Positions 453 to 31,904 of a stretch of DNA of 64,000 nt are shown piece after piece. Numbering within the stretch: the stretch's first letter is position 1; each line of letters opens with the position of its first letter. The stretch is taken from the NCBI GenBank assembly GCA_028699085.1, contig JAQVVF010000005.1:79-64078 (forward strand), written 5' to 3'. The notes beneath the pieces are model-generated. The model was given only the letters and a program-made list of their open reading frames with translations. It did not search any database and was not told where the DNA came from. Source of the DNA: Patescibacteria group bacterium. Its GTDB lineage: Bacteria > Patescibacteriota > JABMPQ01 > JAQVVF01. The translations under genes and the position numbers were made by a program.

Positions 453-2966
453 ATGACAAATTCTAAAGAAGCAAAAGCACGAATAAAAATAAACAAATTG
501 CTTGAACAAGCGGGCTGGAGATTTTTTGATAATGAAAAAGGACAAGCAAACATTTCACTTGAACCAAATGTAAAACTTACCCAAAAGGACATTGACGCTT
601 TTGGTGAAGATTTTGAATCTACAAAAAACGGCTTTATTGATTTTTTATTGCTTGATGAAAAAGGTTTCCCACTTGTTATTTTGGAAGCCAAAAAAGAAGA
701 TAAAAATCCACTAGACGGAAAAGAACAAGCGAGAAAATATGCTCATACTGAAAATGCTCGTTTTGTAATTCTTTCAAACGGCAATCTTCATTATTTTTGG
801 GACTTGGAACGAGGCGATCCTGAAATTATCACGGAATTTCCAACGCAAGAATCTTTGAAGCACAGGCAAGATTTCAAACCCGACAATCAGCGTTTAGCAG
901 ACGAAGAAGTCAAAGAGGATTATATTGCGTTTACTCAAAATCCAAATTTCAAAGATGATCCTCGCTATCTCAACAAAGAAACACGAGAACAATATCTTTG
1001 GGACGAAAACTTGCGAATTTTACGCCCATATCAGCTCAAAGCGGTTCACGCTTTGCAAAAATCCGCCGAAGCTGGAAATGATCGTTTTCTTTTTGAAATG
1101 GCAACGGGAACAGGAAAAACGCTTATTTCCGCCGCCATTATTAAACTTTTTTTAAGAACAGGAAACGCAAAAAGAATTTTGTTTTTGGTTGACCGTTTGG
1201 AATTGGAAGATCAAGCACATAAAAACTTTGTCCGCTATTTGAGCAACGATTTTTCCTCTGTTATTTATAAGCAAAATCGTGATGACTGGAAAAAGGCGGA
1301 AGTGGTTATCACAACCGTTCAAAGTCTTTCATCGCAAGACAAATACAAAAAACTATTTTCACCAACTGATTTTGATTTAGTTATTGCTGATGAATCACAC
1401 CGAGCAATCGGCGGAAATTCGCGCGCAGTTTTTGAATACTTTATCGGCTACAAATTGGGCTTAACCGCAACACCGAAAGACTATTTGAAAAATGTTGATC
1501 CACAAAAGTTATCGCAAAAAGACCCGCGAGCTTGGGAAAGACGGCAATTGCTTGATACTTACACGACTTTTGGTTGCAAAAACGGCGAGCCGACTTTCCG
1601 CTTTAGTTTGCTTGACGGCGTGCGAGAAGGATTTTTGATCAATCCTATTGTTTCGGACGCTCGGACAGACATCACAACTGAATTGCTTTCAGAAAAAGGC
1701 TATGCGGTCATGATTGAAGATGAAGAAGGTGGCGAAAGCGAAGAAACATTTTTTCAAAAGGATTTTGAAAAGAAATTCTTTTCCGAAAAGACAAATCGTG
1801 TCTTTTGCCAAACATTTATCGAAAATTCTCTCAAAGACCCGATAAGCGGTGAAATCGGCAAAAGTATTATATTTTGTGTAAGCCAAAAACATGCTTCAAA
1901 AATTACCCAAACACTCAACCAAATGGCGAGCCAGCTTTGGCCCGACAAATACAATTCTGATTTTGCCGTGCAAATAACCTCAAACATTGCCGATAGCCAA
2001 CAATTCCCGATCAATTTTGCCAATAACAATTTAAGCGGGCATACAAAATTTTTAGAAAACTACAAATCAAGCAAAACCAGAATTTGTGTAACTGTCGGAA
2101 TGATGACGACTGGCTATGATTGCCAAGATATTTTGAATCTTGCGCTTATGCGTCCCGTCTTTTCGCCGACTGATTTTATCCAGATCAAAGGACGAGGAAC
2201 AAGAAAATTTACTTTTGAATATACCGACGAATACGGCGAAAAGCACAAAGCAATAAAAGATCATTTCAAATTTTTTGATTTTTTCGCTAACTGCGAATAC
2301 TTTGAAGAAAAATTTGATTATGACGAGGTTTTGCTGTTGCCTATCAAACAAAAAGGAACTGGTGGAGAAGGACCTGTCGGCGTTGATATTGATGAAATAG
2401 AAATTTTCAATCCCGACAAGGTAAAATCCCTCACCGAAATACCCGTTGGAATTGAGGGAATGAAAGTTGATCGAAAACTTTTTGAGAAAGCCCGCGAGGA
2501 ATTACAAAACGATCCCGAAGTAAAAACTGCCGTTGAAAGCGAGCAATGGGAAAAGGCGGTGCAGATAATGCGGAACAAATACGAAGACAAACCGCAATTA
2601 TTCCTAAATCTTGAAAAAATCCGCAAGAGTGAAAATCTTGATCGCCGTATTTCTTGGCGTGAATTTTTAGAGCGAGCTTTCGGCTTGATTGATGTTTTCA
2701 AATCCAAAGACGAGAAATTGGAAGAAGAATGCGAAAAATTTATTTCAATCTACAAACCCGAAAGCAAATATGTTCCACATATCAAAAATTATCTGAAGGC
2801 GTATGTTACGGATTCAGAAATTCGCGACATTATAGATTCCAAAGAATATGGGCGTTTTGCAACCAATCCAAAAGTTACGATGAAAGATTTTCGAGATCTG
2901 AATGGATATCGTGAAGTCGTCCCTGAATATGTAAAGGATTATGTAGCTATTAACGCTTTCATGTAA
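453..2966 (+). CDS. hsdR: Type I restriction enzyme R subunit (HsdR-like endonuclease/helicase)
   Basis: N-terminal HsdR_N/Mrr-like PD-(D/E)xK region (DFLLLDEKG...ILEAKK). SF2 helicase motifs: I ATGTGKT, II DESH, III LTATP. 837 aa. Operon with a methylase. Confidence 0.85.
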   Translation: MTNSKEAKARIKINKLLEQAGWRFFDNEKGQANISLEPNVKLTQKDIDAFGEDFESTKNGFIDFLLLDEKGFPLVILEAKKEDKNPLDGKEQARKYAHTENARFVILSNGNLHYFWDLERGDPEIITEFPTQESLKHRQDFKPDNQRLADEEVKEDYIAFTQNPNFKDDPRYLNKETREQYLWDENLRILRPYQLKAVHALQKSAEAGNDRFLFEMATGTGKTLISAAIIKLFLRTGNAKRILFLVDRLELEDQAHKNFVRYLSNDFSSVIYKQNRDDWKKAEVVITTVQSLSSQDKYKKLFSPTDFDLVIADESHRAIGGNSRAVFEYFIGYKLGLTATPKDYLKNVDPQKLSQKDPRAWERRQLLDTYTTFGCKNGEPTFRFSLLDGVREGFLINPIVSDARTDITTELLSEKGYAVMIEDEEGGESEETFFQKDFEKKFFSEKTNRVFCQTFIENSLKDPISGEIGKSIIFCVSQKHASKITQTLNQMASQLWPDKYNSDFAVQITSNIADSQQFPINFANNNLSGHTKFLENYKSSKTRICVTVGMMTTGYDCQDILNLALMRPVFSPTDFIQIKGRGTRKFTFEYTDEYGEKHKAIKDHFKFFDFFANCEYFEEKFDYDEVLLLPIKQKGTGGEGPVGVDIDEIEIFNPDKVKSLTEIPVGIEGMKVDRKLFEKAREELQNDPEVKTAVESEQWEKAVQIMRNKYEDKPQLFLNLEKIRKSENLDRRISWREFLERAFGLIDVFKSKDEKLEEECEKFISIYKPESKYVPHIKNYLKAYVTDSEIRDIIDSKEYGRFATNPKVTMKDFRDLNGYREVVPEYVKDYVAINAFM

Positions 2967-2971
2967 AAATT

Positions 2972-5428
2972 ATGCTTAATCAAGATACAAAACGAAAAAT
3001 TGACTCTGCCCGTAATATCCTTGTCGGCAAAGTTCCTGATCCAAAAGCACAGGTTGAGCAAATCACGACTGCTCTCATCTATAAATTTATGGATGATATG
3101 GACAAGGAAGCTCAAGAGCTTGGCGGTAAGGCAAGGTATTTTACAAATGGCTACGAAAAATATTCGTGGACAAAATTGATGGATGTAAAACTTGGTGGGC
3201 ATGAACGCTTGAACCTGTATTTTGAAGCAGTGAGCAGTCTTGGTCGCAATCAGCACATGCCACAAATTTTTAGAGATATTTTCGGCGATAAATCATTGCC
3301 ACCCTATCGTGATCCGCAAACCCTCACTCTTTTTTTGAAAGAGATAAATGGCTTTAATTTTGATCACAGCGAAGATTTGGGTGACGCTTATGAATACCTG
3401 CTTAATGTTATTGGCACATCTGGCGAAGCGGGACAATTTCGCACGCCTCGCCAAATTATTGATTTTATAGCAACAGCGGTTGATCCAAAAAAAGGTGATA
3501 CAGTTTGCGATCCTGCCTGCGGAACGGCTGGCTTCTTGATTTCTGCCTACAAACATATTTTAAAACAGCATGACGGTTTAGATGATCCCGAAAAAACAGA
3601 AAAACCGCTTACTCCAGACGAAAAGAAAAATTTGATGAATCATTTTGTCGGCTACGATATTGATCCAGGAATGGTGCGGATTGCTACGGTAAATATGTAT
3701 TTGCACAATTTTCCTGAACCGAAAATTTTTGAATACGACACGCTCACTTATGAGGACAGGTGGGACGAAACTTTTGATGTGATTCTCGCCAATCCGCCAT
3801 TTATGACACCAAAGGGCGGAATTCGTCCGCACAAGCGTTTTAGTATTCAAGCGAACCGATCGGAAGTCCTTTTTGTTGATTATATTGCCGACCATTTGAA
3901 TCTAAACGGCAAGGCGGGCGTGATTGTTCCCGAAGGGATTATTTTCAATAATCAAGTTGCATACAAGAATTTGCGAAAAAAATTAGTGGAAAGTTGTTTG
4001 ATTGCCGTCGTGAGTTTGCCTCAAGGTATTTTTATCAAGCCGGGCGGAAAAGGAAATGTCAAAACTGGTGTTTTGATTTTTGACAAAGAACTGGTCAAAA
4101 AAACCAAAGATGTTTTATTTGTGAAAATCAGCAATGACGGTTTTGATCTTGGCGCGCAAAGACGAGTAATTGATAAAAATGATTTGCCCTTGGCTTTGGG
4201 AATTATCAAAAGATATAAATCTGCGTTGAAAAACGGCAAGGATTTTGAATTAGACGAAGAAGAAAACAAAATTGCGCATATTGTTGCCAAAGAAAAAATT
4301 GCTGAAACTGGCGACTATAATTTAACAAATGAACGATATAAAGAAACGGCTGAGCGAATAAATCAAAAATATCCAATGGTTGAATTGGGCGAGGTTTGTG
4401 AGATGTATCAACCAAAAACAATCACCTCAAAAGAAATAAAATCAGAAGGAAAATATAAGGTTTTTGGGGCAAATGGAGTTATTGGATATTACGACAAGTA
4501 TAATCACGAAGATAGCGAGGTTCTTATCACTTGTCGTGGGGCAACTTGTGGGACACTTAATTTATCTGAGCCAAATTCTTGGATTACTGGAAATGCAATG
4601 GTAATAAAGCCAAAGGATGATCGACTTAGCAAGCAGTTTCTTTTTTACATTCTGAAACAATCAAACTTTAAATCGGTAATTTCTGGATCAGCTCAACCTC
4701 AAATAACAAGGACATCATTATCACCTTTAGAAATACCACTTCCGCCGATTGAAATTCAAAAAGAAATCGTTGAGCAGATTGAGGTCAAGCAAAATGCCAT
4801 AGATCACGCCAAGGCGATTATCCAAAATCTAGAGAGAGAGAGACGCTATTTTGGTCAATCACTTAGAAAATTAGAAGGCGTTGAATGGGTGGAATTGGGT
4901 GAAATTTTTGAAAAAGTGAGTGATCAAATCAATCCACAAAATAATTCTGGTTCAGTCGTCTATATTGGACTAGAAAACATTGAATCAAATTCAGGAAATA
5001 TAGTTGGGGAAATAAATACCGAAATGAAATCAATTAGAAGCATTAAAAATGTATTTAAAGAATCAGATATTCTGTATGGAAAACTAAGACCGAATTTAAA
5101 CAAGGTATGGTTATCAGATCGAAAAGGCATTTGCTCTACTGATATTCTGGTTTTAAGGAAAAAGAAAGAAGAAATGAATCCGTGGCTTTACACAATTATT
5201 TTAAGAAGTGAGGAATTTAACACTGAGGTTTTGAAAGGGCTAAAAGGTGCGCAATTGCCAAGAGTGAGTTTTGAGTACTTATCTAAAATCAAAATCCCAT
5301 ACTTGGTAGAAGAATTACAAGAAAGATATTTGAGCGATTTAAAAAATGAGGAAGAAGCAATAAATGCAAACAAAAAAATGATTGAAATTTACGAACAAAA
5401 AATTTCTGATGTGTTAAGCGAAATATAA
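2972..5428 (+). CDS. Type I R-M methyltransferase fused to specificity subunit (HsdM-HsdS fusion)
   Basis: N-terminal HsdM_N region. AdoMet motif DPACGTAGFL. N6-adenine MTase motif NPPF. The C-terminal ~350 aa contain two HsdS-like target-recognition domains (LITCRGATCG...; YGKLRPNLNKVW...) separated by a conserved EIQKEIVEQIE spacer. Confidence 0.8.
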   Translation: MLNQDTKRKIDSARNILVGKVPDPKAQVEQITTALIYKFMDDMDKEAQELGGKARYFTNGYEKYSWTKLMDVKLGGHERLNLYFEAVSSLGRNQHMPQIFRDIFGDKSLPPYRDPQTLTLFLKEINGFNFDHSEDLGDAYEYLLNVIGTSGEAGQFRTPRQIIDFIATAVDPKKGDTVCDPACGTAGFLISAYKHILKQHDGLDDPEKTEKPLTPDEKKNLMNHFVGYDIDPGMVRIATVNMYLHNFPEPKIFEYDTLTYEDRWDETFDVILANPPFMTPKGGIRPHKRFSIQANRSEVLFVDYIADHLNLNGKAGVIVPEGIIFNNQVAYKNLRKKLVESCLIAVVSLPQGIFIKPGGKGNVKTGVLIFDKELVKKTKDVLFVKISNDGFDLGAQRRVIDKNDLPLALGIIKRYKSALKNGKDFELDEEENKIAHIVAKEKIAETGDYNLTNERYKETAERINQKYPMVELGEVCEMYQPKTITSKEIKSEGKYKVFGANGVIGYYDKYNHEDSEVLITCRGATCGTLNLSEPNSWITGNAMVIKPKDDRLSKQFLFYILKQSNFKSVISGSAQPQITRTSLSPLEIPLPPIEIQKEIVEQIEVKQNAIDHAKAIIQNLERERRYFGQSLRKLEGVEWVELGEIFEKVSDQINPQNNSGSVVYIGLENIESNSGNIVGEINTEMKSIRSIKNVFKESDILYGKLRPNLNKVWLSDRKGICSTDILVLRKKKEEMNPWLYTIILRSEEFNTEVLKGLKGAQLPRVSFEYLSKIKIPYLVEELQERYLSDLKNEEEAINANKKMIEIYEQKISDVLSEI

Positions 5429-5430
5429 CT

Positions 5431-7845
5431 ATGATTAGCAAAATCTCAAAACTCGATAAAGTTGCTAAATTTTCTTCCATTACACAAGAGAAGGTTTTTC
5501 AATATGGTGGGAAAGGACAAAACTGCAATATCGTCTTTGGATTTAATGGATCTGGGAAAACCACTCTATCAAATGCAATTTCATTTTTCGCCGACAACTC
5601 CTTTATTAGTGAGGACGAAAAGAAAGAAATATATGATGATATAAAAAATGGTGATGATTCTATCGTTGAATTAAGCACACAAGGAAATTCAACAATAAAA
5701 TACCCTGCCAACAGCGCACATAGTAAAAATATTTATATTTTCAATTCCAACTTTGTCGCTACTCATGTTTTTAACGGCACGAAAGGAAAATTGAAAAAAT
5801 TTTCGAATATAGGCGGTGAAATTAAAAACAAGGAAATTGATAATATCAATCAGCAAATTGAAGTGCTTGACGAGGAGAAGAAAAAGCTAGAAAACGAAAA
5901 TACAAAATTAGGCGAAAAGCACGAGGAAATTACAAAAACCAGAAGCAAAAGTTTTGGTAAAACTTTGACCGATAAAAACAAAAGACTTTTAACTCAAGAT
6001 TTAACTAATGTTCAATTACCCACAGAAACTATTGAAAATCTTGAAGTAAAACTCGCTACATTTTCTGCCGATTATGAATTGAGCAAAAAACAGACTGAGT
6101 TAAACGCCGACCTTGAAGAATTACGACAACTAAATTTTAGCTCATTGGATTTTGATTTTCCAAAATTAGACGAGCTACTGGCAAAAAATATTCAACAACT
6201 GTCAAAAGAAGTTTTGGAAAAAAAGATAAAGGAAGTGCAAAATCTTTTTTCGGATGACCAACATAAACAAAGTGTTGAGAAATGGTTTAGATTTGGAAAG
6301 GATGTTTTAGAGAACACAAACGGGAATGACAAAAAACACTGCCCGATTTGTAATACAGATATATCAGAGCGAATGAGTTTAATTTTGAAGGATTATCAAG
6401 GATATTTTGATGAAAGTTATGAAAATTTTATTAACGATTTAAAGCTAAAAAGTGATGATATTTCAACGAATACCGTCACTTTAGAACAACACGAGCTAAA
6501 TGCTAGTAAATTAGAAAAACTGCAAATCAAGTATGCAAAACTGCTAGGCGAGCTTTCTTTTGAAAAATTTGATTTTAAAGATATTAAAGCTGACCTTGTT
6601 GAGTTAAAAGAAAGTTTTGTTTCAAAAAATGGGAATGTTCAAGACAATTTTTCAAAACCAAAGAATATAGAAAATAATATTACTGCCCTCAATCTTGCCT
6701 TGACAGCGTTTCAAGAACTCAGGAACAATGTTTTGAAACTTTTAGAATCAAAGAAATTAAACACGCACACTATTGAGGGACAAATCAGACAAACCTATAA
6801 CGAAATTATCCTACTAGAATTTAATCAAACTGATAAACTTGGGGCAATAAAGAAGTACAAAGTCAATAAAAATAGAATTGAGGCTATCATAGACAGCAAA
6901 GAGGCAGGTCTTCCTTTTTGGAAAAACAAATTGCTAGAAGAATTAAGGAAGCTCAAAGCTGAATCAAAGAGTATTTCCAGATATTTAAACAAAATGGGGA
7001 TAGATCATTTTGATATTGATATTAACGAAGAAAAACAAGACGAAAATATTATAATCAAATACAAAAATTCGACAAATGAGAAAAATAAGCTCAAAAATTG
7101 TTTGAGCGACGGCGAAAAAACAGCGTTAGCTTTCGCGTATTTTTTAAGTAAATTTGAAAATGAAATAAACACACCAGAAAAAGTGAAAGATTCTGTTGTG
7201 GTTATAGATGATCCGATTTCTAGCTTGGACGATAACAGACTTTACAGCACCGCTCATTTAATTTGGCGCAACTTTGAGGAAGCAAAGCAACTCATCGTAT
7301 TGAGTCATAACTTTCTTTTCTTGAAGTTTTTCAATTCTTTTTATTGTGGAAAAGCAAACTGTTTATTCTTGGATAGTGAAAAGATTACTGATTTGCCAGA
7401 TGAATTAAAAAACTTTGAAACGCCTTATTTTTATATGCTTAAGACAATCATTGATTTCTTGGATCAGAATAATCAAAATGTAAATTACAATGAAGCGAAA
7501 CGATACTTACCGAATTTCATTAGACGAGTTTTGGAAACATTTCTATCATTTAAGTTTTCAAGAACAGTCAACAAATCTGGCGGACATAGAAGTCCTGGAT
7601 TAAACGAATTTGATGAAAATATTGATAATACTGATATGGATGATAAAATAAAGAAAGAGTTGAAAGATAAAATAGCAGAAATAAACAGAATTGCAGATGC
7701 ACATTCTCACGGAAACGCTCATCACACGCAAGAAAATTTTTATATTTCCGAAACCGATCTCAAAACATTATCCCAAAGTGCAATCTCTGTTATTGAAACA
7801 ATGGATAATTTGCACAAGACTTGTTTTGTTAAAATTGAAAATTAG
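5431..7845 (+). CDS. RloC/PrrC-like ABC-type ATPase with a coiled-coil zinc hook and a putative C-terminal anticodon-nuclease domain
   Basis: 804 aa. Walker A GFNGSGKTT. Long K/E-rich coiled coil with a central CPICNTD (CxxC hook). ABC signature LSDGEK. Walker B/D-loop VVVIDDPISSLD. C-terminal region with R/H-rich motifs (NFIRRVLETF; AHSHGNAHH). Located immediately after hsd genes (restriction-linked ORF). Confidence 0.7.
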   Translation: MISKISKLDKVAKFSSITQEKVFQYGGKGQNCNIVFGFNGSGKTTLSNAISFFADNSFISEDEKKEIYDDIKNGDDSIVELSTQGNSTIKYPANSAHSKNIYIFNSNFVATHVFNGTKGKLKKFSNIGGEIKNKEIDNINQQIEVLDEEKKKLENENTKLGEKHEEITKTRSKSFGKTLTDKNKRLLTQDLTNVQLPTETIENLEVKLATFSADYELSKKQTELNADLEELRQLNFSSLDFDFPKLDELLAKNIQQLSKEVLEKKIKEVQNLFSDDQHKQSVEKWFRFGKDVLENTNGNDKKHCPICNTDISERMSLILKDYQGYFDESYENFINDLKLKSDDISTNTVTLEQHELNASKLEKLQIKYAKLLGELSFEKFDFKDIKADLVELKESFVSKNGNVQDNFSKPKNIENNITALNLALTAFQELRNNVLKLLESKKLNTHTIEGQIRQTYNEIILLEFNQTDKLGAIKKYKVNKNRIEAIIDSKEAGLPFWKNKLLEELRKLKAESKSISRYLNKMGIDHFDIDINEEKQDENIIIKYKNSTNEKNKLKNCLSDGEKTALAFAYFLSKFENEINTPEKVKDSVVVIDDPISSLDDNRLYSTAHLIWRNFEEAKQLIVLSHNFLFLKFFNSFYCGKANCLFLDSEKITDLPDELKNFETPYFYMLKTIIDFLDQNNQNVNYNEAKRYLPNFIRRVLETFLSFKFSRTVNKSGGHRSPGLNEFDENIDNTDMDDKIKKELKDKIAEINRIADAHSHGNAHHTQENFYISETDLKTLSQSAISVIETMDNLHKTCFVKIEN

Positions 7846-8796: not shown

Positions 8797-9528
8797 ATGT
8801 TAAAAAACAAAACTGCCATTGTAACTGGTGCTGGTCAAGGTATTGGCAAGGGAATTGCCGTAGCTTTGGCAAAAGAAGGTTGCAATATTGTTGTTTCAGA
8901 TATCAATCAGGAAACTTGTGATCAAACTTTTGCTGAGATTACGAAATTGGGAGTTCAATCTATTGCTGTAAAATGTGATGTTTCAAAAAAAACAGAAGTT
9001 AATAATCTTTCAAAAGTTGTCGCAGAAAAATTTAATAAGATTGATATTTTAGTTAATAACGCTGGTATTTTTCCATTTGTTCCTTTTGCCAAAATGACTG
9101 AAGCTGATTGGGACAAAGTTTTAAATATTAATTTAAAAAGCATGTTCCTAACTTCCCAGGCTATTTCTTTGAATATGCCAGAAGGTGGAAAAATTGTTAA
9201 CATCTCCTCAGTTGCTTCTTTCATTGGTTTCGAAGGTTTAGTTCACTATTGCGCTTCCAAAAGTGGTGTTAATGGCTTGGTTAGAGCTTTAGCTTTAGAA
9301 TTAGCCCCTAGAAAAATCAATGTCAATGCTGTTGCCCCAGGAGCTATTGAAACTCCAGGTGCAAAATCGGACGAAAAAACAAAACAGCAAACTTTAATGA
9401 TGATTCCTCAAAAAAGAATGGGTAAACCAGAGGATATTGCTAATACTGTTGTCTTTTTAGCATCTGATAAATCAGATTATATTACCGGACAAGTTATAGT
9501 TGTTGATGGTGGTTGGACATTAAGATAA
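8797..9528 (+). CDS. SDR-family oxidoreductase (FabG-like)
   Basis: TGAGQGIGKG Rossmann motif. NNAG. YxxxK (YCASK) catalytic motif. 243 aa. Confidence 0.85.
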   Translation: MLKNKTAIVTGAGQGIGKGIAVALAKEGCNIVVSDINQETCDQTFAEITKLGVQSIAVKCDVSKKTEVNNLSKVVAEKFNKIDILVNNAGIFPFVPFAKMTEADWDKVLNINLKSMFLTSQAISLNMPEGGKIVNISSVASFIGFEGLVHYCASKSGVNGLVRALALELAPRKINVNAVAPGAIETPGAKSDEKTKQQTLMMIPQKRMGKPEDIANTVVFLASDKSDYITGQVIVVDGGWTLR

Positions 9529-9535
9529 TTATTTT

Positions 9536-10276
9536 ATGCTTAGTGCATTACTACTTACAACAATATCTGGACTGTCAACAGTTATTGGTGGCTTGGCAAT
9601 TTATATTATCAAGAATAAAAACAAATATTATAGTTTAGGAATGGGTTTTGCTGCTGGAGTAATGATTTATATCTCTTTTGTCGAATTACTTGGTAAGAGT
9701 ATAATAAAAATTGGATATGGAAAATCAATACTGTCATTTTTTATTGGGATTATTATAATTTTTCTTATTGATATTTTGATACCTCATCTCTATCAGGAAG
9801 AAAAAAAGATTATAACTAAACAAGGTAAGACTTTTACAAAAAGTGCGATTCTAATAACAATTGGTATCGCAATCCATAACTTTCCAGAAGGCATAGCAGT
9901 ATTCTATTCTTCTCTTGCTGGTTTAAGTTTTGGATTATTTATTACATTAGCAATAATATTGCATAATATTCCCGAAGGTTTTTCAATTGCAATGGCTGTC
10001 AATAAAGCCACAAATAACAGAAGAAGAGCAATCTGGTTTTGCTTTATTTCTGGTATTGCTGAACCAATCGGTGCCTTATTATCCATTATCTTTTTGTATC
10101 GTTTCATTGATCAAAATTTATTAAACATTATTTTAGCTGGAGTCGCTGGAGTTATGATTTTTATTAGTTTTGATGAATTATTGCCTCAAGCTTATACGCA
10201 AAAAAGTGCCCATCTAACAATTGGCGGCATAATAAGCGGTATGGCAATAATGTCAATCAGCTTATATTTCCTTTAA
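9536..10276 (+). CDS. zupT: ZIP-family zinc transporter (ZupT-like)
   Basis: Multi-TM protein with HNFPEG and HNIPEG signature motifs. Confidence 0.8.
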   Translation: MLSALLLTTISGLSTVIGGLAIYIIKNKNKYYSLGMGFAAGVMIYISFVELLGKSIIKIGYGKSILSFFIGIIIIFLIDILIPHLYQEEKKIITKQGKTFTKSAILITIGIAIHNFPEGIAVFYSSLAGLSFGLFITLAIILHNIPEGFSIAMAVNKATNNRRRAIWFCFISGIAEPIGALLSIIFLYRFIDQNLLNIILAGVAGVMIFISFDELLPQAYTQKSAHLTIGGIISGMAIMSISLYFL

Positions 10277-10278
10277 TT

Positions 10279-11595
10279 ATGTCTCACAAAGAAAAAATTT
10301 TAGATATTATAAAACAATTAAAAAATTTAAAATCAAAGAATCAACCTGTTTCTTTTTCCAAAAAAACAGTTTCTCATTTTGTTCCATCAGCACACACATC
10401 AAGAGAAAAACTGCCCAAATTAGATTTAAAGTCTTTAGATTCTTTACTTAATATTGATCCAAAAAAAAATATTGGTATTGCTGAACCTGGTCTTACTTTC
10501 TCGGAATTATTAATAGAATCATTGAAATATAATTTAATTCCAGCTGTTGTCCCAGAATTAAAGACCATTACTTTAGGAGGTGCAATTTCCGGATGTTCAA
10601 TAGAATCAATGTCCTACAAGTATGGAGGATTCCATGATAGTTGTTTAGAATATGAAATAATCACTAGCAATGGAGAAATCATTATCTGCTCAAAAGATAA
10701 TAACCAAGATATTTTTGATATGATTCATGGTTCATATGGAACATTAGGAATAATTTCCAAAATAAAATTTAAATTATTGCCTGCCAAACCATATGTTCAT
10801 TTACTTTACAAAAAATATAATAATTTTGAGCAGTATTGGAATGATTTGCAAAAATACTGCCAGGAAAAACAATTTGATTTTATTGATGGAATAATTTATA
10901 ACACAAATTTATTTATTCTTTGTTTAGGCAATATGGAAGATTCTGCTCCTTTTACATCGAAATATGATTGGCTAAAAGTCTTTTATAAAGCTACTGCCAA
11001 GAAAGAAGAAGATTATTTTAAAATTTACGATTATTTTTATCGTTATGATGCTGATTGCCATTGGCTATCAAAAAAAATTCCGTTAATGGAAACATTTTTT
11101 GGCAGATTATTTTTTGGAAAGTTTGTTTTAGGATCAAGCAACTTAATAAAACTCTCCAAAAAGTTTGGGCCAAAAATTAATAAAGGCAAGAAACCAGATG
11201 TTGTTGTTGATGTTTTTATTCCTAACAATAATTTTCCACAATTTTATAATTGGTATAAAAAAGATTTTAATTTTTTTCCACTATGGATTGTGCCATACAG
11301 AGCTCCAAAAATCTACCCTTGGGTTTCTAACAGTTTAGCTAGCAAAATTGAAGATGCTTTTTTCATTGATGCTGCAATCTATGGTAAAGAAAACAATGAA
11401 AAAAATATTGATTATGCTAAAATGCTTGAAGATAAAGTTTTTGAACTTAATGGCATTAAGACTCTAATTTCACAAAACCATTATTCTAGAACAAGATTCT
11501 GGGAAATTTATAATTTTGAAAATTTTAAAAAAGTTAAACAAAAAACAGATCCAAATAATTTGTTTAATGATTTATATAAAAAAATGGTTAGATAG
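10279..11595 (+). CDS. FAD-binding oxidoreductase (FAD_binding_4 / ALO- or DprE1-like)
   Basis: PCMH-type FAD-binding domain (LGGAISGCS...GSYGTLGII). The C-terminal ...DPNNLFN end is typical of FAD-linked oxidases. Confidence 0.7.
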   Translation: MSHKEKILDIIKQLKNLKSKNQPVSFSKKTVSHFVPSAHTSREKLPKLDLKSLDSLLNIDPKKNIGIAEPGLTFSELLIESLKYNLIPAVVPELKTITLGGAISGCSIESMSYKYGGFHDSCLEYEIITSNGEIIICSKDNNQDIFDMIHGSYGTLGIISKIKFKLLPAKPYVHLLYKKYNNFEQYWNDLQKYCQEKQFDFIDGIIYNTNLFILCLGNMEDSAPFTSKYDWLKVFYKATAKKEEDYFKIYDYFYRYDADCHWLSKKIPLMETFFGRLFFGKFVLGSSNLIKLSKKFGPKINKGKKPDVVVDVFIPNNNFPQFYNWYKKDFNFFPLWIVPYRAPKIYPWVSNSLASKIEDAFFIDAAIYGKENNEKNIDYAKMLEDKVFELNGIKTLISQNHYSRTRFWEIYNFENFKKVKQKTDPNNLFNDLYKKMVR

Positions 11596-17739: not shown

Positions 17740-18108
17740 ATGACACTTCGTTCATATTTATTAGGTATGTTCTTCTCCACTATTGTCTGTTGGCTTGCTT
17801 TTGGCTTAATTTTATATTATGTTAACCCTTACAATTCTGGAGCATTGGGCTTAATTGCTTTTTATATTAGTTTATTTTTTGCCAGTATTGGCACTTTGAC
17901 ACTTATTGGATTCTATCTACGTGTTTGGTTTTCCAAAAATGAAATTTTATTTGCTCATGTCAATCCATCTTTCCGTCAAGCAATATTATTATCGATAATC
18001 TTAGTTGGTTCATTAGTTCTACAAGCTTTTAGACTTTTAACCTGGTGGGATGGATCGCTATTCGTTATAAGTATTGTATTAGTAGAATTTTATTTTATCT
18101 CAAGATAA
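17740..18108 (+). CDS. Hypothetical small integral membrane protein
   Basis: 122 aa with 3-4 predicted TM helices. No recognised family. Confidence 0.4.
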   Translation: MTLRSYLLGMFFSTIVCWLAFGLILYYVNPYNSGALGLIAFYISLFFASIGTLTLIGFYLRVWFSKNEILFAHVNPSFRQAILLSIILVGSLVLQAFRLLTWWDGSLFVISIVLVEFYFISR

Positions 18109-25465: not shown

Positions 25466-25593
25466 CTTGTTCCTCCTACTATTGCATAAGCATAGCATAG
25501 ACAAAACAAAAGCACTTGACAATATATTTTTAATAAATTATAATGGAACTAATAAATAGTGGTTCCAGCCGCTGTTTTTTAATAAAGAAACTT

Positions 25594-25791
25594 ATGAAGA
25601 TCAAAGAAATTTTTCCAAGAATTATTAATTATTTTAAAGAATCCAGAGAAGAATTAAAAAAAGTTGTTTGGCCAACTAGACAAGAATTATTTCGCCATAC
25701 TTTAATTGTGATTGGTGTTTCATTAGCAACTGCTGCATTTTTAGGAATCTTTGATTATGGTTTTTCTAAACTATTACAGTTATTTATTTAA
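25594..25791 (+). CDS. secE: Preprotein translocase subunit SecE
   Basis: 65 aa from the internal ATG at 25594. Single C-terminal TM and KKVVWPTRQEL motif. Immediately upstream of nusG (conserved synteny). Confidence 0.7.
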   Translation: MKIKEIFPRIINYFKESREELKKVVWPTRQELFRHTLIVIGVSLATAAFLGIFDYGFSKLLQLFI

Positions 25792-25820
25792 TTTTGATTT
25801 TTGAATTTTAATTAATATTT

Positions 25821-26366
25821 ATGCCAAAGCAAATTGGACCAAAAGAAAGACAATGGTATGTTTTGCACACATATTCTGGATACGAAGAGAATGTCTCAGA
25901 AAACTTAAAGCAAAGAATCGAGTCTATGAATATGCAGGACAAGATTTTTAATGTTTTAGTTCCAAAAGAAAAAAAGATCAAAATCAAGAATGGCAAAAGA
26001 AAAACAGTTGAAGAAAAAGTTTATCCAGGATATGTATTGGTTGAAATGATTGTAACAGACGAGTCATGGTATGTAGTTAGAAACACTCCTAACGTAACTG
26101 GTTTTATCGGTTCCGGAACAATTCCACTTCCTATTTCTGAAAAAGAATATGAATCATTGAAAAAGAGAATGGGAGTTGAAGAGCCAAAATTTAAAATTGA
26201 TGTTGCTGTTGGTGAGACAGTAAAAATTACTGATGGTCCATTCAAGGATTTTGATGGCAAGGTTAACAAAATTGACGAAGAAAAAGGAACAGTTAAAGTT
26301 CTTGTTAATATGTTTGGTCGTGAAACTCCAGTCGAATTAGATTTCTTGCAAATCAAGAAAATCTAA
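25821..26366 (+). CDS. nusG: Transcription termination/antitermination factor NusG
   Basis: NGN domain (WYVLHTYSGYE) and C-terminal KOW. 181 aa. Confidence 0.9.
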   Translation: MPKQIGPKERQWYVLHTYSGYEENVSENLKQRIESMNMQDKIFNVLVPKEKKIKIKNGKRKTVEEKVYPGYVLVEMIVTDESWYVVRNTPNVTGFIGSGTIPLPISEKEYESLKKRMGVEEPKFKIDVAVGETVKITDGPFKDFDGKVNKIDEEKGTVKVLVNMFGRETPVELDFLQIKKI

Positions 26367-26425
26367 TTTTAAAAATTATCATTTCTTGTTTTAGCTCGAA
26401 ATGACAGATAAATAAAAACAAAAAA

Positions 26426-26971
26426 ATGTTTTATCTAATTTTTCAAGCGCTTTATTTCATATTACCTGCTGGAATCGCTAACATGGCTCCAGTTTTTGCA
26501 AAAAAGATTAATTTCTTAAATATTCCTGTTGATTTCGGAAAAAGCTTTCGTGGTCAAAGAATTTTTGGTGATCACAAGACTTGGCGTGGATATTTTTCTG
26601 CAATTATAATTGGTGTGATCGTTTCTGGCATTCAAGCTTATCTATATTTCAGTTTTGAATTCTTTCAATCCTTGACAATCTTCCCATTTAGAGAGTATAA
26701 TTTTATACTCTTCGGTTTTTTGTCAGCATTAGGTGCGATGATCGGAGATACAGTTAAAAGTTTCTTTAAACGTCAAGCAAATGTGCAGCCAGGTCAAAAG
26801 TTTATTCCTTGGGATCAAATTGATTTTATTCTCGGTGCATTAATCTTTATTTCATTCTATTTTCGTCCAAACTGGCTAGTTTACGTAATCTTGTTGGTCC
26901 TTGTGCCGTTTCTCCATGTTTTAATTAATAGAATCGGATTCTGGCTAGGTATTCACAAGACAAAATGGTAG
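26426..26971 (+). CDS. CDP-archaeol synthase-like membrane protein (CarS/DUF46 family CTP-transferase)
   Basis: 181-aa polytopic membrane protein with GDHKTWRG and GDTVKSFFKRQ...PWDQIDF motifs, which resemble the CarS family. Confidence 0.6.
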   Translation: MFYLIFQALYFILPAGIANMAPVFAKKINFLNIPVDFGKSFRGQRIFGDHKTWRGYFSAIIIGVIVSGIQAYLYFSFEFFQSLTIFPFREYNFILFGFLSALGAMIGDTVKSFFKRQANVQPGQKFIPWDQIDFILGALIFISFYFRPNWLVYVILLVLVPFLHVLINRIGFWLGIHKTKW

Positions 26972-27092
26972 TTTCAAATTTAAAATGCAAAGATAAAAAT
27001 GCAAAATTACAATTTAAAATTAAAAATTTATTTAATTTTAAATTTTGCACTGTCATTTTACATTTTTATTTTTAAATTTTAATTTTATTATT

Positions 27093-27515
27093 ATGGCTAA
27101 AATTAAGACAGTAATCAAATTACAAATTCCAGCTGCAAAAGCAAATCCAGCTCCTCCAATTGGTCCGGCATTAGGCCAACATGGTTTGAATATTCAGGAA
27201 TTTTGTACAAAATTTAACGCTGCAACAAAAGATAAAGCAGGCGATATTATTCCAGTAGAAATTACAGTTTTTGAAGATCGAACTTATGATTTTATTTTAA
27301 AAACTCCTCCAGCTGCTGAATTATTAAAAAAAGCTGCCAAGATTCAAAAGGGTTCCGGAACACCAAACAAGCAAAAAGTTGGAGTAGTCACAAAGGCACA
27401 ATTGCAAGAAATTGCAAAAGTAAAAATGCCTGATCTAAATACTGACGATGTAGAGCAAGCAATGAAGATCATCGAAGGTACAGCAAAAAATATGGGTTTG
27501 ACCATCAAAGGATAA
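27093..27515 (+). CDS. rplK: 50S ribosomal protein L11
   Basis: [34 protein letters not shown]. Internal start at 27093; the upstream ORF extension is spurious. Confidence 0.9.
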
Positions 27516-27524
27516 GAAAAATAA

Positions 27525-28112
27525 ATGTTTATAAGGGAAATAAAAAAGTATTCAGATAATATTTTACCGCTTAAGTTTTATAAATTCTTAGAGCGAATAG
27601 GGTTGTCTCCAAACAAGCTTACCCTTTTCGCTCTTTTTTTTAAAATTTCGGTCCTTTATTTTTTCTATAACGGGCAAATTGTTCTCGGAGGAATATTTAT
27701 TGCTTGCGATTATTTTTTTGATTATTTAGATGGCACAATGGCAAGAAGATTGGACAGAGTTACTCCATTTGGTACATATTATGATACAGTTCTAGACAGA
27801 TTTTTCAGAACTGCAGGTTGGCCACTCTCATTGGCATTTGGCAGTATAATAACTTTCAAAATTGCAGCTCTTCTTATTGCTTTCAATTTACTCTTGATTT
27901 TCTCTTCAAGTGTGGTAGAATCATATAAATTGCGTCACTTCCCATTTATGTTGAATGTTTTTTATCTCATACCGTATGGCGCATTATTAAATCAAGTCGA
28001 GCTAGCTGCAACATTAGAAGCAATAGTTGCATTTATACTGCTAATAACTAATACAATTACAATAATTGTTTTAAATTTTAGAAATAATAGTGGAAGTCCA
28101 GCACATAAATAG
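27525..28112 (+). CDS. CDP-alcohol phosphatidyltransferase family membrane protein
   Basis: Perfect signature D-G-x2-A-R-x8-G-x3-D-x3-D (DGTMARRLDRVTPFGTYYDTVLD). Multi-TM. 195 aa. Confidence 0.75.
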   Translation: MFIREIKKYSDNILPLKFYKFLERIGLSPNKLTLFALFFKISVLYFFYNGQIVLGGIFIACDYFFDYLDGTMARRLDRVTPFGTYYDTVLDRFFRTAGWPLSLAFGSIITFKIAALLIAFNLLLIFSSSVVESYKLRHFPFMLNVFYLIPYGALLNQVELAATLEAIVAFILLITNTITIIVLNFRNNSGSPAHK

Positions 28113-28202
28113 TTATGTGCTGTGACGTTAAAACCACACGCTTTAAGTTAATTAATTAATCTTTTAATAAAAGTTAATTAAGAAAGCTTAAAGCAAACTA
28201 TA

Positions 28203-29003
28203 ATGGCAAAAGAAAAAGAAGTTAAAGAAGAAAAAAAAGAAGTTGCAGAAGTTGTTGAAGAGAAAAAAGTTGCAACAGAAGAAAAAGAGACAAAGAAAGT
28301 TAAAAAAGTTGTTAAAAAACAACCTCGCAAAAGAAGCAAGAGGTATTTAGCTTTGAAAAAAGAAATTAAAAATCAACGATATTCTGTTGAAGAAGCAATC
28401 GAATTAGCAAAGAAAACATCAACAACAAAATTTGATGGTTCTATCGAAGTTCATGTCAGACTAGGAATTGATATTGGAAAATCTGATCAAATGGTCCGAG
28501 GTTCTGTAAAATTTCCTAATGCTACGGGCAGAAAGATCAAAATTGCAGCATTTGTTGAGGAACAAAATCAAGCAGCTTGTAAAGAAGCTGGTGCAGAAAT
28601 TGTTGGTGGTGAAGAACTAATCAAACAAATCAAAGAAACCAAGAAATGTGATTTTGATATTTCAGTTGCTGAACCAAAAATGATGCCAAAATTAGGCCAG
28701 ATTGCAAAGATTTTAGGTCCAAAAGGTTTAATGCCAACTCCAAAAAATCAAACTGTTTCTCCGACTCCAGAAAAAACTATTAAAGAATTAATGGGTGGAA
28801 AAACAGCTTTTAAAAATGATGCTAATGGTATTATTCATATCATGATTGGCAAAGCTTCATTCGATTCTAAAAAATTAGTTGAAAATTTAAATATTTTTAT
28901 TGAAGAATTAAGAAAACTAAAACCAGAAAAAGTCAAAGGTGAATTTATTAAGAGACTTACTGTTTGTTCCACAATGGGACCTGGAGTAAAAGTCAGAGTT
29001 TAA
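28203..29003 (+). CDS. rplA: 50S ribosomal protein L1 with a ~40-aa Lys/Glu-rich N-terminal extension
   Basis: L1 core (KFDGSIEVHVRLGID..., GPKGLMPTPK). 266 aa. Confidence 0.9.
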   Translation: MAKEKEVKEEKKEVAEVVEEKKVATEEKETKKVKKVVKKQPRKRSKRYLALKKEIKNQRYSVEEAIELAKKTSTTKFDGSIEVHVRLGIDIGKSDQMVRGSVKFPNATGRKIKIAAFVEEQNQAACKEAGAEIVGGEELIKQIKETKKCDFDISVAEPKMMPKLGQIAKILGPKGLMPTPKNQTVSPTPEKTIKELMGGKTAFKNDANGIIHIMIGKASFDSKKLVENLNIFIEELRKLKPEKVKGEFIKRLTVCSTMGPGVKVRV

Positions 29004-29049
29004 TAAAATATAAATTAAATAAAAAAAGGCTAGTAATAGCCTTTTTATT

Positions 29050-29649
29050 TTAGGGTGCATTTTGTGTTTGTGATCTGATTAAATTAACAAATTCTTGGAT
29101 AGGTATATACATAATTCTTAAACCATTGAATTCTTTCAGAAAGGGCTGAATTTTTTCGTTTTCCATCCAAAAAGGTATCCAAAATTGTTTATTGCCATCA
29201 TTGATTTCTCTCAAGCAATAGAAAAGTCTTACAAACAATTCGCAAGCGCGAAAGATTCTACTCTCCATGCAATTTTCTTTTTGAATATCATAAATTAAAA
29301 GCAGTTTTTCTTGAAAATCAGCAGGTAAAAAGATAATCGCTTCTAAGAATTTTTCTCGCTCCAATCTTTCATCAGCTTCAGTTTTGTCCGGTTCTTGAAT
29401 ATCCCCAAAGCCATCCATTGCCTCTCCAAAATCATGAATTGTTCCCAAATCAGAAACAATTTCGCCATTAAACTTAACATCAGGATCGTATTTTTTGATC
29501 ATCGCTTTTGCCAGTTGAATAACAATGCCAAGCTTTATCGTATGCGCGGAAACATTTTCAAGATGTAATTTAGGAATATTTTTCCATCTTTGTTCATCTT
29601 GCAAGCCTTGTACAATTCTTACTAAACCTTCTTCAATCCGATGTGGCAT
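29050..29649 (-). CDS. HD-domain phosphohydrolase (YfbR-like 5'-deoxynucleotidase candidate)
   Basis: H...HD...D pattern (SAHT...IHDFGE...D). 199 aa. AAGGAGGA SD upstream. Confidence 0.6.
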   Translation of the reverse strand: MPHRIEEGLVRIVQGLQDEQRWKNIPKLHLENVSAHTIKLGIVIQLAKAMIKKYDPDVKFNGEIVSDLGTIHDFGEAMDGFGDIQEPDKTEADERLEREKFLEAIIFLPADFQEKLLLIYDIQKENCMESRIFRACELFVRLFYCLREINDGNKQFWIPFWMENEKIQPFLKEFNGLRIMYIPIQEFVNLIRSQTQNAP

Positions 29650-29826
29650 CCTCTTCCTCCTTTTCCCTCTTGTTTTTTTCTTAATTTTTTCTTAAAATAA
29701 AAAGAACACTCAAAATATCGATGATCAAAAAAAATGACAACGATTAGTTAAATTTAACATTTATTGAATAAGGAATCAATAATATAGTTATTTTAAATTT
29801 TTCGCTTTAAATTTTAATTTTGAAAT

Positions 29827-31266
29827 ATGTCAAACAAAAACAGCTGTCAAATTTACGTGTTGGAGGGATTAACGCCAGAAGTCCGAGCAGTCACTTTTGC
29901 CAAGTGTTCGCGTTCAGACAAATCTTTCAGGGAAATTGCCGCAGGCCTAACTGCCGAGAATTCTTCAAAATTCCATGAAAAATGGGTTGTTGGTTATGGC
30001 CATTCTTCAGTTGCTGAGCATGCTCCAATTTCGATTGCTATGGAAAATATTTCACTTCTTGCAGTAGAAGCAATCGAATCAAACCGTTTGGCTTCATATA
30101 CTGAAAAATCTTCTCGTTATCAAATTTATGATGAAGATCGAGTTTATTATCCAAAAGAATTTAAGCAAGATAAAGCGATCGACAAATTATTTCGCGATAC
30201 AATAAAATTACAGTTCGCTTTATATAAAAAAAGCATTAAGCCAATTCAAGAAATTATCTATCAAGAAAATCCAAAAGAAAAAGGCGAAGATCAAAAAGGT
30301 TATGAAGGCAGAGTAAGATCAAAATGGATTGATATGTGTCGTTATCTTTTGCCAAATGCTTGTTTTGCAAATTTAGGTATGACTGCAAATGCTAGAACTT
30401 ATGAAAATGCTTTAGTCAAATGGTTCTCGCATCCTTTATCTGAAGTACAAGAAATTGCGAAACAAGTAAAAAGAGAAGCTCTAAAAATTACTCCAACCTT
30501 AGTTAAATACGCTGATCCAAATAGCTATTTAATTGATTCTTACAAAATCTTGCCTAAAAAAGTAAAAACAATTTTAGGTGCAGAGAAAAAATATCTAGGC
30601 AAAGAAATTTTAGTTGAGTTAGTTGATTTTGATAAAGATGCTGAAAGAAAAGTATTAGCTGCGGTTATCTATCAATTCTCGAATATTCCATACAAAAAGG
30701 CTTATCAAAAAGCCAAAAGTTTAAAGAAAACTGACAAAGAAAAATTATTAGATAATATTCTAAAAAGAATCGGCAAGCATGACAAGCCATTACGTGCTTT
30801 AGAGCTTCCGTATTTTACTTTTGATTGCTTGATTGATCAAGGTGCTTATGCTGATTTAAAGAGAAATCGAATCATGACTCAACTACCACAAACTGTTACT
30901 ACAAAACATGGCTATTTTATTCCAAGAGCTTTTGTTTTGGCAGGTTTAGAAAAAGAATATAAAGAAGTTATGGAAGCAACAGATAAAGCCTTTAAAATAA
31001 TTTCCAAAAAGTTTCCTAATGAAGCAGGCTACATCGCTACAAAATCATATGGCCGTAGATTTTTGATGAAAATGAATCTTCGTGAATTATACTATTTCTG
31101 CTATTACAGAGGTGCAAATCCAGGTGGCCATGTTTCGTATCGTTTTGTCGGTACAAAAATGTATGAGCAAGCTTCTAAAAAATTTCCAACTTTAATGAAA
31201 TATCTACCATACATTTTTGATATGAATAGCAAAGAATTAAATAAATATTTTGAATATATTGCTTAA
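29827..31266 (+). CDS. ThyX-like (flavin-dependent thymidylate synthase family) protein, double length
   Basis: GHSSVAEH and NRLASYTEKSSRY resemble ThyX HxSVxEH and the RHRxxSxxxxSxRY motif (with H replaced by N). 479 aa, against ~250 aa for ThyX. Immediately upstream of tmk. Confidence 0.55.
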   Translation: MSNKNSCQIYVLEGLTPEVRAVTFAKCSRSDKSFREIAAGLTAENSSKFHEKWVVGYGHSSVAEHAPISIAMENISLLAVEAIESNRLASYTEKSSRYQIYDEDRVYYPKEFKQDKAIDKLFRDTIKLQFALYKKSIKPIQEIIYQENPKEKGEDQKGYEGRVRSKWIDMCRYLLPNACFANLGMTANARTYENALVKWFSHPLSEVQEIAKQVKREALKITPTLVKYADPNSYLIDSYKILPKKVKTILGAEKKYLGKEILVELVDFDKDAERKVLAAVIYQFSNIPYKKAYQKAKSLKKTDKEKLLDNILKRIGKHDKPLRALELPYFTFDCLIDQGAYADLKRNRIMTQLPQTVTTKHGYFIPRAFVLAGLEKEYKEVMEATDKAFKIISKKFPNEAGYIATKSYGRRFLMKMNLRELYYFCYYRGANPGGHVSYRFVGTKMYEQASKKFPTLMKYLPYIFDMNSKELNKYFEYIA

Positions 31267-31271
31267 ATTGT

Positions 31272-31904
31272 ATGAACAAAAATAGTTTTATTACTAATCC
31301 ATTTAAAGGCATATTTATTGCCTTTGAAGGATTAGATGGATCTGGGTTATCAACTCAAGTTGATTTATTAAATAAATATCTCAACAAACAAGGCTACAAA
31401 AGTTTTGCTACCAAAGAGCCAACCAATAATATAATTGGTGGTTTGATTCGAGGACTTCTCACTCATATCTGGAAAGCCAGCAATGAATGTTCGCAATTAT
31501 TGTTTACTGCAGATCGCGCCTTGCATTTAGAGAAAGAAATTATTCCAGCCTTAAAAAAGAAAAACATTATTATTACTGATCGCTATTTTTTCTCTACCGT
31601 TGCCTTTGGTTCGCTAAACATCAGAGATTTAGACTGGCTTGTTTCGCTTAATCAACATTTTATCTTGCCGGATTTAATTTTCTTAATTAAAGTTCCGCCA
31701 AAAGAATGTGTTAAGAGAATAAAGTCTTCAAGATTTCATAAAGAATTGTTTGAGGAAGAGATTAAGCTTAAAAAAATTTGGCGGACATATAACAAATTAG
31801 CTAAAATATTTCCGAATATTCACATTATTGACGGAAATCGTGATAAGAAAAAAGTTTTCGAAGAAATTTTTGAAATTGTAATAAAAAAATTAAAAAAGAA
31901 ATAG
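31272..31904 (+). CDS. tmk: Thymidylate kinase
   Basis: P-loop FEGLDGSGLSTQ, DRY motif and lid region. 210 aa. Confidence 0.85.
   Translation: MNKNSFITNPFKGIFIAFEGLDGSGLSTQVDLLNKYLNKQGYKSFATKEPTNNIIGGLIRGLLTHIWKASNECSQLLFTADRALHLEKEIIPALKKKNIIITDRYFFSTVAFGSLNIRDLDWLVSLNQHFILPDLIFLIKVPPKECVKRIKSSRFHKELFEEEIKLKKIWRTYNKLAKIFPNIHIIDGNRDKKKVFEEIFEIVIKKLKKK

Follow-up and report, generated by a model that had tools for sequence, protein, structure and literature searches.

A CarS-family gene and a CDP-alcohol phosphotransferase gene interleaved with secE-nusG-rplK-rplA in Patescibacteria: a putative lipid head-group module

Why would the genes for two membrane enzymes of lipid metabolism lie inside a secretion and ribosomal-protein gene cluster? 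This question is raised by a 64-kb stretch of Patescibacteria DNA (contig JAQVVF010000005.1; hereafter the window, to whose positions all coordinates refer), in which secE, nusG, rplK and rplA are interleaved with a gene of the CarS family and a gene for a class-I CDP-alcohol phosphotransferase (CAPT). A preliminary description of this DNA had proposed that the secE-nusG-rplK-rplA order is interrupted twice, with short gaps and on one strand. Open reading frames (ORFs) and profile searches of Pfam and NCBIfam with curated cut-offs bore this out, and the coordinates, strand and identities of all six genes were correct as described. The six ORFs occupy 25594-29003 on the + strand in the order secE, nusG, CarS, rplK, CAPT and rplA, and are separated by gaps of 29, 59, 121, 9 and 90 nucleotides (nt).

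All four conserved genes scored above bacterial equivalog cut-offs. These are secE (25594-25791; 65 amino acids (aa), as in its orthologue at the related locus L082; 76 bits to PF00584 and 75.6 bits to TIGR00964), nusG (25821-26366; 181 aa; 206 bits to TIGR00922, cut-off 135.7), rplK, for ribosomal protein L11 (27093-27515; 140 aa; 199.8 bits to TIGR01632, cut-off 141.9), and rplA, for ribosomal protein L1 (28203-29003; 266 aa; 277 bits to TIGR01169, cut-off 216). The families suggested in the preliminary description for the two interleaved genes were matched as well. The predicted CarS-family CTP:lipid-phosphate cytidylyltransferase (26426-26971; 181 aa; MDD3887769.1) scored 110.8 bits against PF01864 and CAPT (27525-28112; 195 aa; MDD3887771.1) scored 54.4 bits against PF01066, each with a cut-off of 22. 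These identities were already known, because the annotation pipeline of NCBI had named both proteins, and the enzymes belong to known families. The gene order, however, appears to be unreported: a literature search found no paper on CarS in the candidate phyla radiation (CPR)/Patescibacteria or on this arrangement, and Coleman 2019 is silent on CarS.

The best explanation of the cluster, which we favor with moderate confidence, is a two-step CDP-lipid route that fits a new head group to scavenged lipid and is expressed together with growth-rate genes. The CarS-family enzyme would combine a phosphatidate-like lipid phosphate with cytidine triphosphate (CTP) to give a CDP-activated lipid, and CAPT would move the lipid-phosphate from this donor onto a polar alcohol to give the finished phospholipid. 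The two integral-membrane enzymes would together form one short head-group pathway, whose genes appear to have become fixed within secE-nusG-rplK-rplA in one Patescibacteria clade. Transcription is most likely shared with the rest of the cluster, and head-group synthesis would then track the expression of translation and secretion genes. Because these bacteria are thought to be unable to make lipids de novo, the substrate is likely to be the backbone of an acyl (ester) lipid taken up from other cells, and CarS would act in the role of CdsA. Shared transcription, an acyl substrate, a role in salvage and a lack of CdsA are the parts of this explanation that we infer.

The assignment of the first enzyme to the CarS family is supported by sequence, predicted fold and conserved residues. 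The match to PF01864 spans all 175 positions of the profile (1-175), and the NCBIfam equivalog for CDP-2,3-bis-(O-geranylgeranyl)-sn-glycerol synthase (NF003114) was passed marginally, at 149.9 bits against a cut-off of 148. The protein matches Aeropyrum pernix CarS (ApCarS; structure 5GUF) at E 5e-13. Its AlphaFold2 model has a predicted local distance difference test (pLDDT) score of 94.4, and in a Foldseek search of PDB the single match below E 1e-3 was again 5GUF (TM-score 0.72/0.81, root-mean-square deviation 2.8 Å, 31% identity). An alignment of 83 CPR and DPANN sequences has 19 columns with conservation of at least 95%, and ApCarS carries the conserved residue in every one of them. The predicted five-helix fold, which in ApCarS encloses a cytoplasmic cavity, and the catalytic core, expected to hold the polar residues of the CTP and metal site, are thus conserved as in ApCarS. 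The window protein also resembles ApCarS and the Archaeoglobus fulgidus enzyme (AfCarS) in matching the family over its full length, in its size of about 180 aa, in its five transmembrane helices and in 31-33% identity. It differs from the archaeal enzymes in its setting, which is a bacterium with presumed acyl lipids, with the gene between nusG and rplK and no gene for geranylgeranylglyceryl phosphate synthase (GGGPS) or digeranylgeranylglyceryl phosphate synthase (DGGGPS) nearby.

CdsA of Escherichia coli and Thermotoga maritima (4Q2E) shares with the window protein its reaction type, its superfamily and probably its physiological role. CdsA has about 270-285 aa, nine helices, a dimerization domain and the signature KDx5PGHGGx2DRxD (PMC7018664). 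In place of this signature, the window protein has S-x2-KR-x6-PG-x7-DQ-x-D. Its match to the CdsA family profile PF01148 is weak and partial (32 bits), and the CdsA equivalog NF008635 was not reached (23.8 bits, cut-off 385).

CarS homologues are widespread in Patescibacteria and, as a group, are indistinguishable from those of DPANN archaea. There are 1167 protein clusters at E <= 1e-3, and species-representative genomes contain at least 535 loci; bacterial sequences made up 32 of the best 83. Many DPANN archaea are among the nearest homologues, the nearest archaeal ones being held by Woesearchaeota. Mean identity was 0.43 within bacteria, 0.46 within archaea and 0.43 between the domains, and no column of the alignment (the 83 sequences plus ApCarS) separates bacterial from archaeal CarS. 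A subtype specific to bacteria was rejected on these two grounds. Bacterial and DPANN sequences are interleaved in a neighbor-joining tree, which is star-like and without support values, and from which no direction of transfer is claimed.

The second enzyme carries the complete class-I motif, D66-x2-D69-G70-x2-A73-R74-x8-G83-x3-D87-x3-D91, and all eight motif residues are invariant or nearly so across its subfamily. The identities proposed earlier for the two lipid genes therefore hold by profile, fold and conserved residues in both cases. In the AlphaFold2 model of CAPT (pLDDT 93.0), the closest folds found by Foldseek were mycobacterial phosphatidylinositol phosphate (PIP) synthases, AF2299 and di-myo-inositol phosphate phosphate (DIPP) synthase at TM-scores of 0.67-0.70, with the DIPP synthase at 0.70; PgsA and phosphatidylserine synthase reached only 0.42-0.51. 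AF2299 was also the best solved match of the CAPT profile. With the PIP and archaetidylinositol phosphate (AIP) synthases, AF2299 and DIPP synthase, CAPT shares the eight-residue motif on transmembrane helices 2 and 3, a six-helix fold and an N-terminal half that matches AIP and PIP synthase profiles.

CAPT did not reach the cut-off of any NCBIfam equivalog. The best match was archaetidylinositol-phosphate synthase (NF040950, 69.3 bits, cut-off 180), followed by NF045883 (52.8 bits, cut-off 170), with the N-terminal half alone aligned. PgsA (23 bits, cut-off 109) and PssA (21.5 bits, cut-off 107) were rejected as identities on these scores and on the fold comparison. The hallmark of PIP synthases is a pair of arginines, R155 and R195 in MtPIPS, which bind the phosphate of the acceptor, inositol phosphate (PMC4634129). 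CAPT has no counterpart of this pair: residues 139-185 contain no arginine, none lies on transmembrane helices 5 and 6, and none is conserved in the subfamily, the two positions being mapped by numbering and profile alignment and not by superposition. Identity as a PIP or AIP synthase was rejected on the missed cut-offs and the missing arginines. The acceptor half shows little conservation and matched no equivalog. The subfamily is small and fast-evolving, with 26 representative clusters at E <= 1e-10 in an exhaustive HMMER search among 1.84 billion. One distant relative adjoins a gene for a GT2 glycosyltransferase, and a more distant member of the subfamily also lies near a CarS gene, beside a protein with a VTT/DedA domain.

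The structural branch of CAPT bears on whether the two enzymes act in one pathway. Under an alternative with two separate functions, CAPT would, like AF2299 and DIPP synthase, draw on a soluble CDP-alcohol to build an envelope polymer or a solute, and the CarS-like protein would have another CTP-dependent role in the membrane, for example on polyprenyl phosphate or polyprenol. The best solved match of CAPT, its unassigned acceptor half and its glycosyltransferase-linked relative are in keeping with this. So are the membership of dolichol and phytol kinases in the same superfamily as CarS and a prenyl diphosphate synthase gene that adjoins CarS at L085. However, the closest structural matches of CAPT include PIP synthases, which use a lipid donor, and to our knowledge all characterized members of PF01864 are CDP-archaeol synthases. 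The genomic linkage of the two genes across many lineages and CAPT subtypes is also hard to explain otherwise, and separate functions appear rather improbable.

This linkage is extensive. Of 75 loci, 49 have a gene with the CAPT motif at most three genes from CarS, and in 27 the two genes are direct neighbors. The adjacency is seen in Patescibacteria and DPANN alike, often with a 4-nt overlap, and PF01066 was the commonest family among 100 ORFs flanking bacterial CarS genes. The subtypes of the partner vary and include PgsA-like, AIP synthase-like, PssA (in DPANN) and the window type, which fits CarS as the supplier of a common CDP-lipid donor. At four loci (L010, L011, L046 and L008; Falkowbacteria- or Parcubacteria-like, e.g. 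L010 5998-7726), CarS and CAPT form a unit with a methyltransferase (Methyltransf_31, about 186 aa) in the order CarS-CAPT-methyltransferase; the methyltransferase might modify the head group.

At least seven Patescibacteria assemblies, independent of one another (L001, L002, L004, L082/L083, L084, L085 and L088), share the interleaved order, which in full is gyrB-secE-nusG-CarS-rplK-CAPT-rplA; in the window as well, gyrB is upstream of secE. The relatives have CarS and CAPT at both insertion points, and not unrelated membrane proteins, which the preliminary description had named as a refuting observation; the other observation that it named, a failure of the 26426 protein to match CarS models, did not occur either. 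They include a 645-kb contig whose proteins are 92-99% identical to those of the window (L082), a 547-kb contig (L085) and GenBank metagenome-assembled genomes (L002 and L004); at L088, the C-terminus of CarS precedes rplK. Across the relatives NusG remains 83-86% identical, and identity falls to 46-52% for CarS and to 33-38% for CAPT. The gaps in more distant relatives are 3-84 nt, and 3-53 nt in L002 and L084. In the neighbor-joining tree, again without support values, the CarS sequences of interleaved clusters form one group. The interleaved cluster is thus real and conserved, and is the product neither of chance nor of a chimera.

The many DPANN archaea among the nearest CarS homologues could suggest an assembly or binning artefact, in which archaeal DNA had been joined to a bacterial contig. 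This is extremely improbable. CarS and CAPT are interspersed on a single strand with nusG, rplK and rplA of bacterial type, and at least seven samples gave this structure in independent assemblies, the two long contigs included. GC content is low, at 0.32 in the cluster, equal to the window value. Misassembly is excluded because the order recurs in independent assemblies and composition is uniform.

In sister lineages, nusG, rplK and rplA are contiguous. Kerfeldbacteria-like genomes (L042, L053 and L068) have the order gyrB-CarS-secE-nusG-rplK-rplA, with CarS abutting or overlapping gyrB and no CAPT between rplK and rplA. This arrangement indicates that the double insertion is a derived character of one clade and that CarS has a wider association with this chromosomal neighborhood. 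The four conserved genes have the order and orientation that they have in the secE-nusG and rplKA(JL-rpoBC) operons of typical bacteria. The window differs from them in its two interleaved membrane-enzyme genes, in gyrB upstream, in the absence of rplJ, rplL and rpoBC and in the lack of a leader known to Rfam. Downstream of rplA (29004-31904) there is a convergent gene for an HD-domain, YfbR-like 5'-deoxynucleotidase, followed by thyX-tmk-gatB. The classical cluster is therefore also truncated, since rplJ-rplL-rpoBC do not come after rplA.

Is the cluster transcribed as a unit? A sigma-70-like promoter, TTGACA-17-TATAAT, lies on the + strand at 25516-25544, about 50 nt upstream of secE, and matches the consensus at 12 of 12 positions; its function is predicted from this match. 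At 29023-29046, between the convergent rplA and HD-domain genes, a palindromic hairpin flanked by runs of A and T is likely to be a bidirectional terminator, and no terminator-like site was found on the + strand within the cluster before it. Judged from these signals and from the short gaps (3-84 nt) of relatives, co-transcription of CarS and CAPT with secE, nusG, rplK and rplA, from the promoter to the hairpin, is plausible.

Two features weigh against full coupling. A second promoter-like sequence with a 12/12 match lies inside CarS at 26672-26701 and might uncouple parts of the cluster; both of its hexamers are unchanged in L082, and the bases of the spacer between them differ. Stable hairpins on the + strand, in the two spacers to which the insertions gave rise, could have the same effect. 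The CarS-rplK spacer (26972-27092) is A/U-rich and contains a long hairpin (minimum free energy -24.4 kcal/mol, z = -4.0). It is not conserved in sequence even in the 92%-identical relative L082, where the spacer is an unrelated sequence with many CGAAT/ATTCG words and a fold that is no less stable (z = -6.6). The CAPT-rplA spacer (28113-28202) holds an A/U-rich hairpin (z = -3.3 in the window and -4.3 in L082), and its sequence is conserved in L082. Such hairpins are absent in relatives with short spacers. They may serve in regulation or may represent small palindromic repeats.

These observations could also be taken to mean that genome shuffling produced the gene order by accident and that it is inert, with lipid genes that have their own promoters and no regulatory coupling to the ribosomal proteins. 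The promoter-like site in CarS and the window spacers of 121 and 90 nt with their stable hairpins fit this alternative, CarS is found elsewhere, upstream of secE, in the Kerfeldbacteria-like genomes, and the cluster is already broken after rplA. However, the order has been kept while CarS and CAPT diverged to 46% and 33% identity. The short gaps of L002 and L084 leave little room for separate promoters, rplK and CAPT are separated by 9 nt in the window, and no terminator-like site on the + strand divides the cluster. We consider an inert order unlikely. The placement suggests, without proving, that membrane remodeling is expressed in step with growth rate.

A 38-nt element, ATGGAACTAATAAATAGTGGTTCCAGCCGCTGTTTTTT, was observed at 25543-25580, directly after the promoter-like site upstream of secE. 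It holds a hairpin, GGAAC-N11-GTTCC, followed by a run of T. The element is 100% identical in L082 (about 7660-7700), where it lies about 140 nt further from secE and the flanking intergenic DNA cannot be aligned. In an Rfam scan, the cluster matched neither a ribosomal leader nor any further known RNA, whether at gathering scores or at E <= 1; the one exception was a chance match to a snoRNA.

Which lipid would the pathway act on? A Pfam survey of about 50 ORFs in the 64-kb window, together with a motif scan, found no cdsA, pls genes, GGGPS, UbiA-type DGGGPS or glycerol-1-phosphate dehydrogenase (G1PDH), and the survey found no lipid genes in the window other than CarS and CAPT. The PGHGG motif of CdsA was absent from the CarS protein, the window and 966 kb of related loci. 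When the same DNA was scanned for motifs of CdsA, PlsY and PlsC, the sole match was a PlsC-like gene at L036. GGGPS (PcrB), UbiA-type DGGGPS and G1PDH were also absent from the families with two or more occurrences beside bacterial CarS genes. The census of flanking ORFs did include DAGK_prokar, seen twice. At L036 (3830-5940) and L062, CarS is preceded by a PlsC-like 1-acylglycerol-3-phosphate acyltransferase and an AMP-binding acyl-activating enzyme; L060 (3595-5930) adds a patatin-like phospholipase, and in all three loci CarS and trigger factor follow. This gene set looks like an acyl-lipid salvage operon.

Published data point in the same direction. CPR-enriched fractions contained acylglycerol lipids only and were rich in lysolipids, and CPR genomes are without complete lipid synthesis (PMC7242380). 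Woesearchaeota, likewise, are without GGGPS and DGGGPS (PMC8421398). CarS and CAPT in the absence of core-lipid synthesis therefore look like a salvage module in both Patescibacteria and Woesearchaeota. The context leans against digeranylgeranylglyceryl phosphate (DGGGP), or unsaturated archaetidic acid, as the substrate of CarS; an acyl phosphatidate, or an enzyme that is promiscuous for the lipid tail, is the more likely case. The preliminary description had linked the locus to mixed archaeal and bacterial lipid pathways. The context does not support that link, given the absence of GGGPS, DGGGPS and G1PDH from the window and from the recurrent neighbors of bacterial CarS, the acyltransferase, acyl-activating enzyme and patatin lipase beside CarS in other Patescibacteria, and the acylglycerol lipids of the CPR-enriched fractions.

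Several points nevertheless weigh against salvage of an acyl lipid by CarS and CAPT. Characterized CarS enzymes prefer DGGGP over phosphatidate, and AfCarS fails to complement an E. coli cdsA mutant (review PMC9385802). CarS bears no sequence sign of a substrate switch, because no alignment column divides the bacterial from the archaeal proteins. CAPT belongs structurally to the branch of PIP synthases, AF2299 and DIPP synthase, and some members of this branch use soluble CDP-alcohol donors. The genome evidence spans 64 kb. Finally, a gene for a short-chain prenyl diphosphate synthase of archaeal type (6585-7631) separates CarS from rplK in L085; the best NCBIfam match of this synthase is the IdsA of methanogens (218 bits, below the cut-off). 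The undecaprenyl carrier lipid, however, also requires such a short-chain enzyme, and the UppS of Minisyncoccus is annotated as specific for geranylgeranyl diphosphate (GGPP).

Some of these points would be explained by an archaeal-type route. Here CarS would activate an isoprenoid ether lipid phosphate (DGGGP or archaetidic acid), which the bacterium would either make itself, with genes for GGGPS and DGGGPS in another part of the genome, or obtain from an archaeal host, and the membrane would contain archaeal-type or mixed lipids. The narrow pass of the CDP-archaeol synthase equivalog, the conserved core identical to that of ApCarS, the interleaving of bacterial and DPANN sequences with no domain signature and the IdsA/GGPP-synthase-like gene of L085 are compatible with such a route. 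One Parcubacteria genome has been reported with homologues of GGGPS and DGGGPS (PMC7852524), and some Patescibacteria parasitize methanogens (PMC12281837, PMC10936435). However, the enzymes that would make the substrate are missing from the 64 kb and from the recurrent neighbors of bacterial CarS, those neighbors are acyl-lipid enzymes, the CPR-enriched fractions showed acylglycerol lipids only, and the prenyl synthase has its other use in the carrier lipid. An archaeal-type route is quite unlikely in our judgment.

A bolder form of the acyl-lipid salvage explanation is that CarS, promiscuous for the lipid tail, is the sole CDP-lipid synthase in this clade and in much of Patescibacteria, acting on scavenged acyl phosphatidate, and that CarS has moved repeatedly between Patescibacteria and DPANN. 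We put this forward tentatively, as a possibility that is doubtful at present. If it is true, the CDP-activation step would ignore the lipid divide between bacteria and archaea. A CarS that replaces CdsA would mean that a marker enzyme of archaeal lipids acts on bacterial-type lipids in a very large bacterial radiation. CarS would then be weaker as evidence of 'archaeal lipids' in metagenomes, and these proteins would be natural enzymes with which to probe how strict the lipid divide is at CDP-activation. Head-group replacement would be the part of membrane biogenesis that is kept by these lipid-scavenging symbionts. The placement of lipid genes within secE-nusG-rplKA also provides a clean synteny marker for one Patescibacteria clade.

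Bacteria with homologues of archaeal membrane-lipid enzymes are also known from Ca. Cloacimonetes of the FCB group (Villanueva et al. 2021, PMC7852524). The two gene sets are complementary. The Cloacimonetes have GGGPS and DGGGPS, are without CarS and rely on CdsA (PMC7852524), whereas the window has CarS, and GGGPS and DGGGPS were not seen in its 64 kb.

Other features of the window and its relatives were noted. The gene set is typical of a small genome and includes pheST, gyrB, thyX, tmk, gatB, miaA, thrS, dnaE, ftsW and atp genes. An N-terminal extension of L1, about 42 residues long and rich in Lys and Glu (28203-28330), is also present in L082 (275 aa); L002, L004, L084, L085 and L088 are without it (225-228 aa). 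The ThyX homologue at 29827-31266 (479 aa) contains two Thy1 stretches and looks like a tandem fusion, with the same length in L082, and thyA-folA are found at the corresponding position in L084 and L085. A type I restriction-modification system at 453-7845 consists of an HsdR-like helicase, a fused methylase-specificity subunit (818 aa) and an ATPase of the AAA_13 family (804 aa). In L082 (344-724), a CTP-dependent riboflavin kinase of archaeal type (PF01982) lies between pheS and pheT; the window ORF at this position (17740-18108) had no Pfam match. At 8797-11595, a ZIP transporter is flanked by a short-chain dehydrogenase/reductase (FabG/glucose-dehydrogenase-like) and a FAD_binding_4 oxidoreductase, which has weak N-terminal matches to GlcD and DprE1; these two could be a DprE1/DprE2-like pair.

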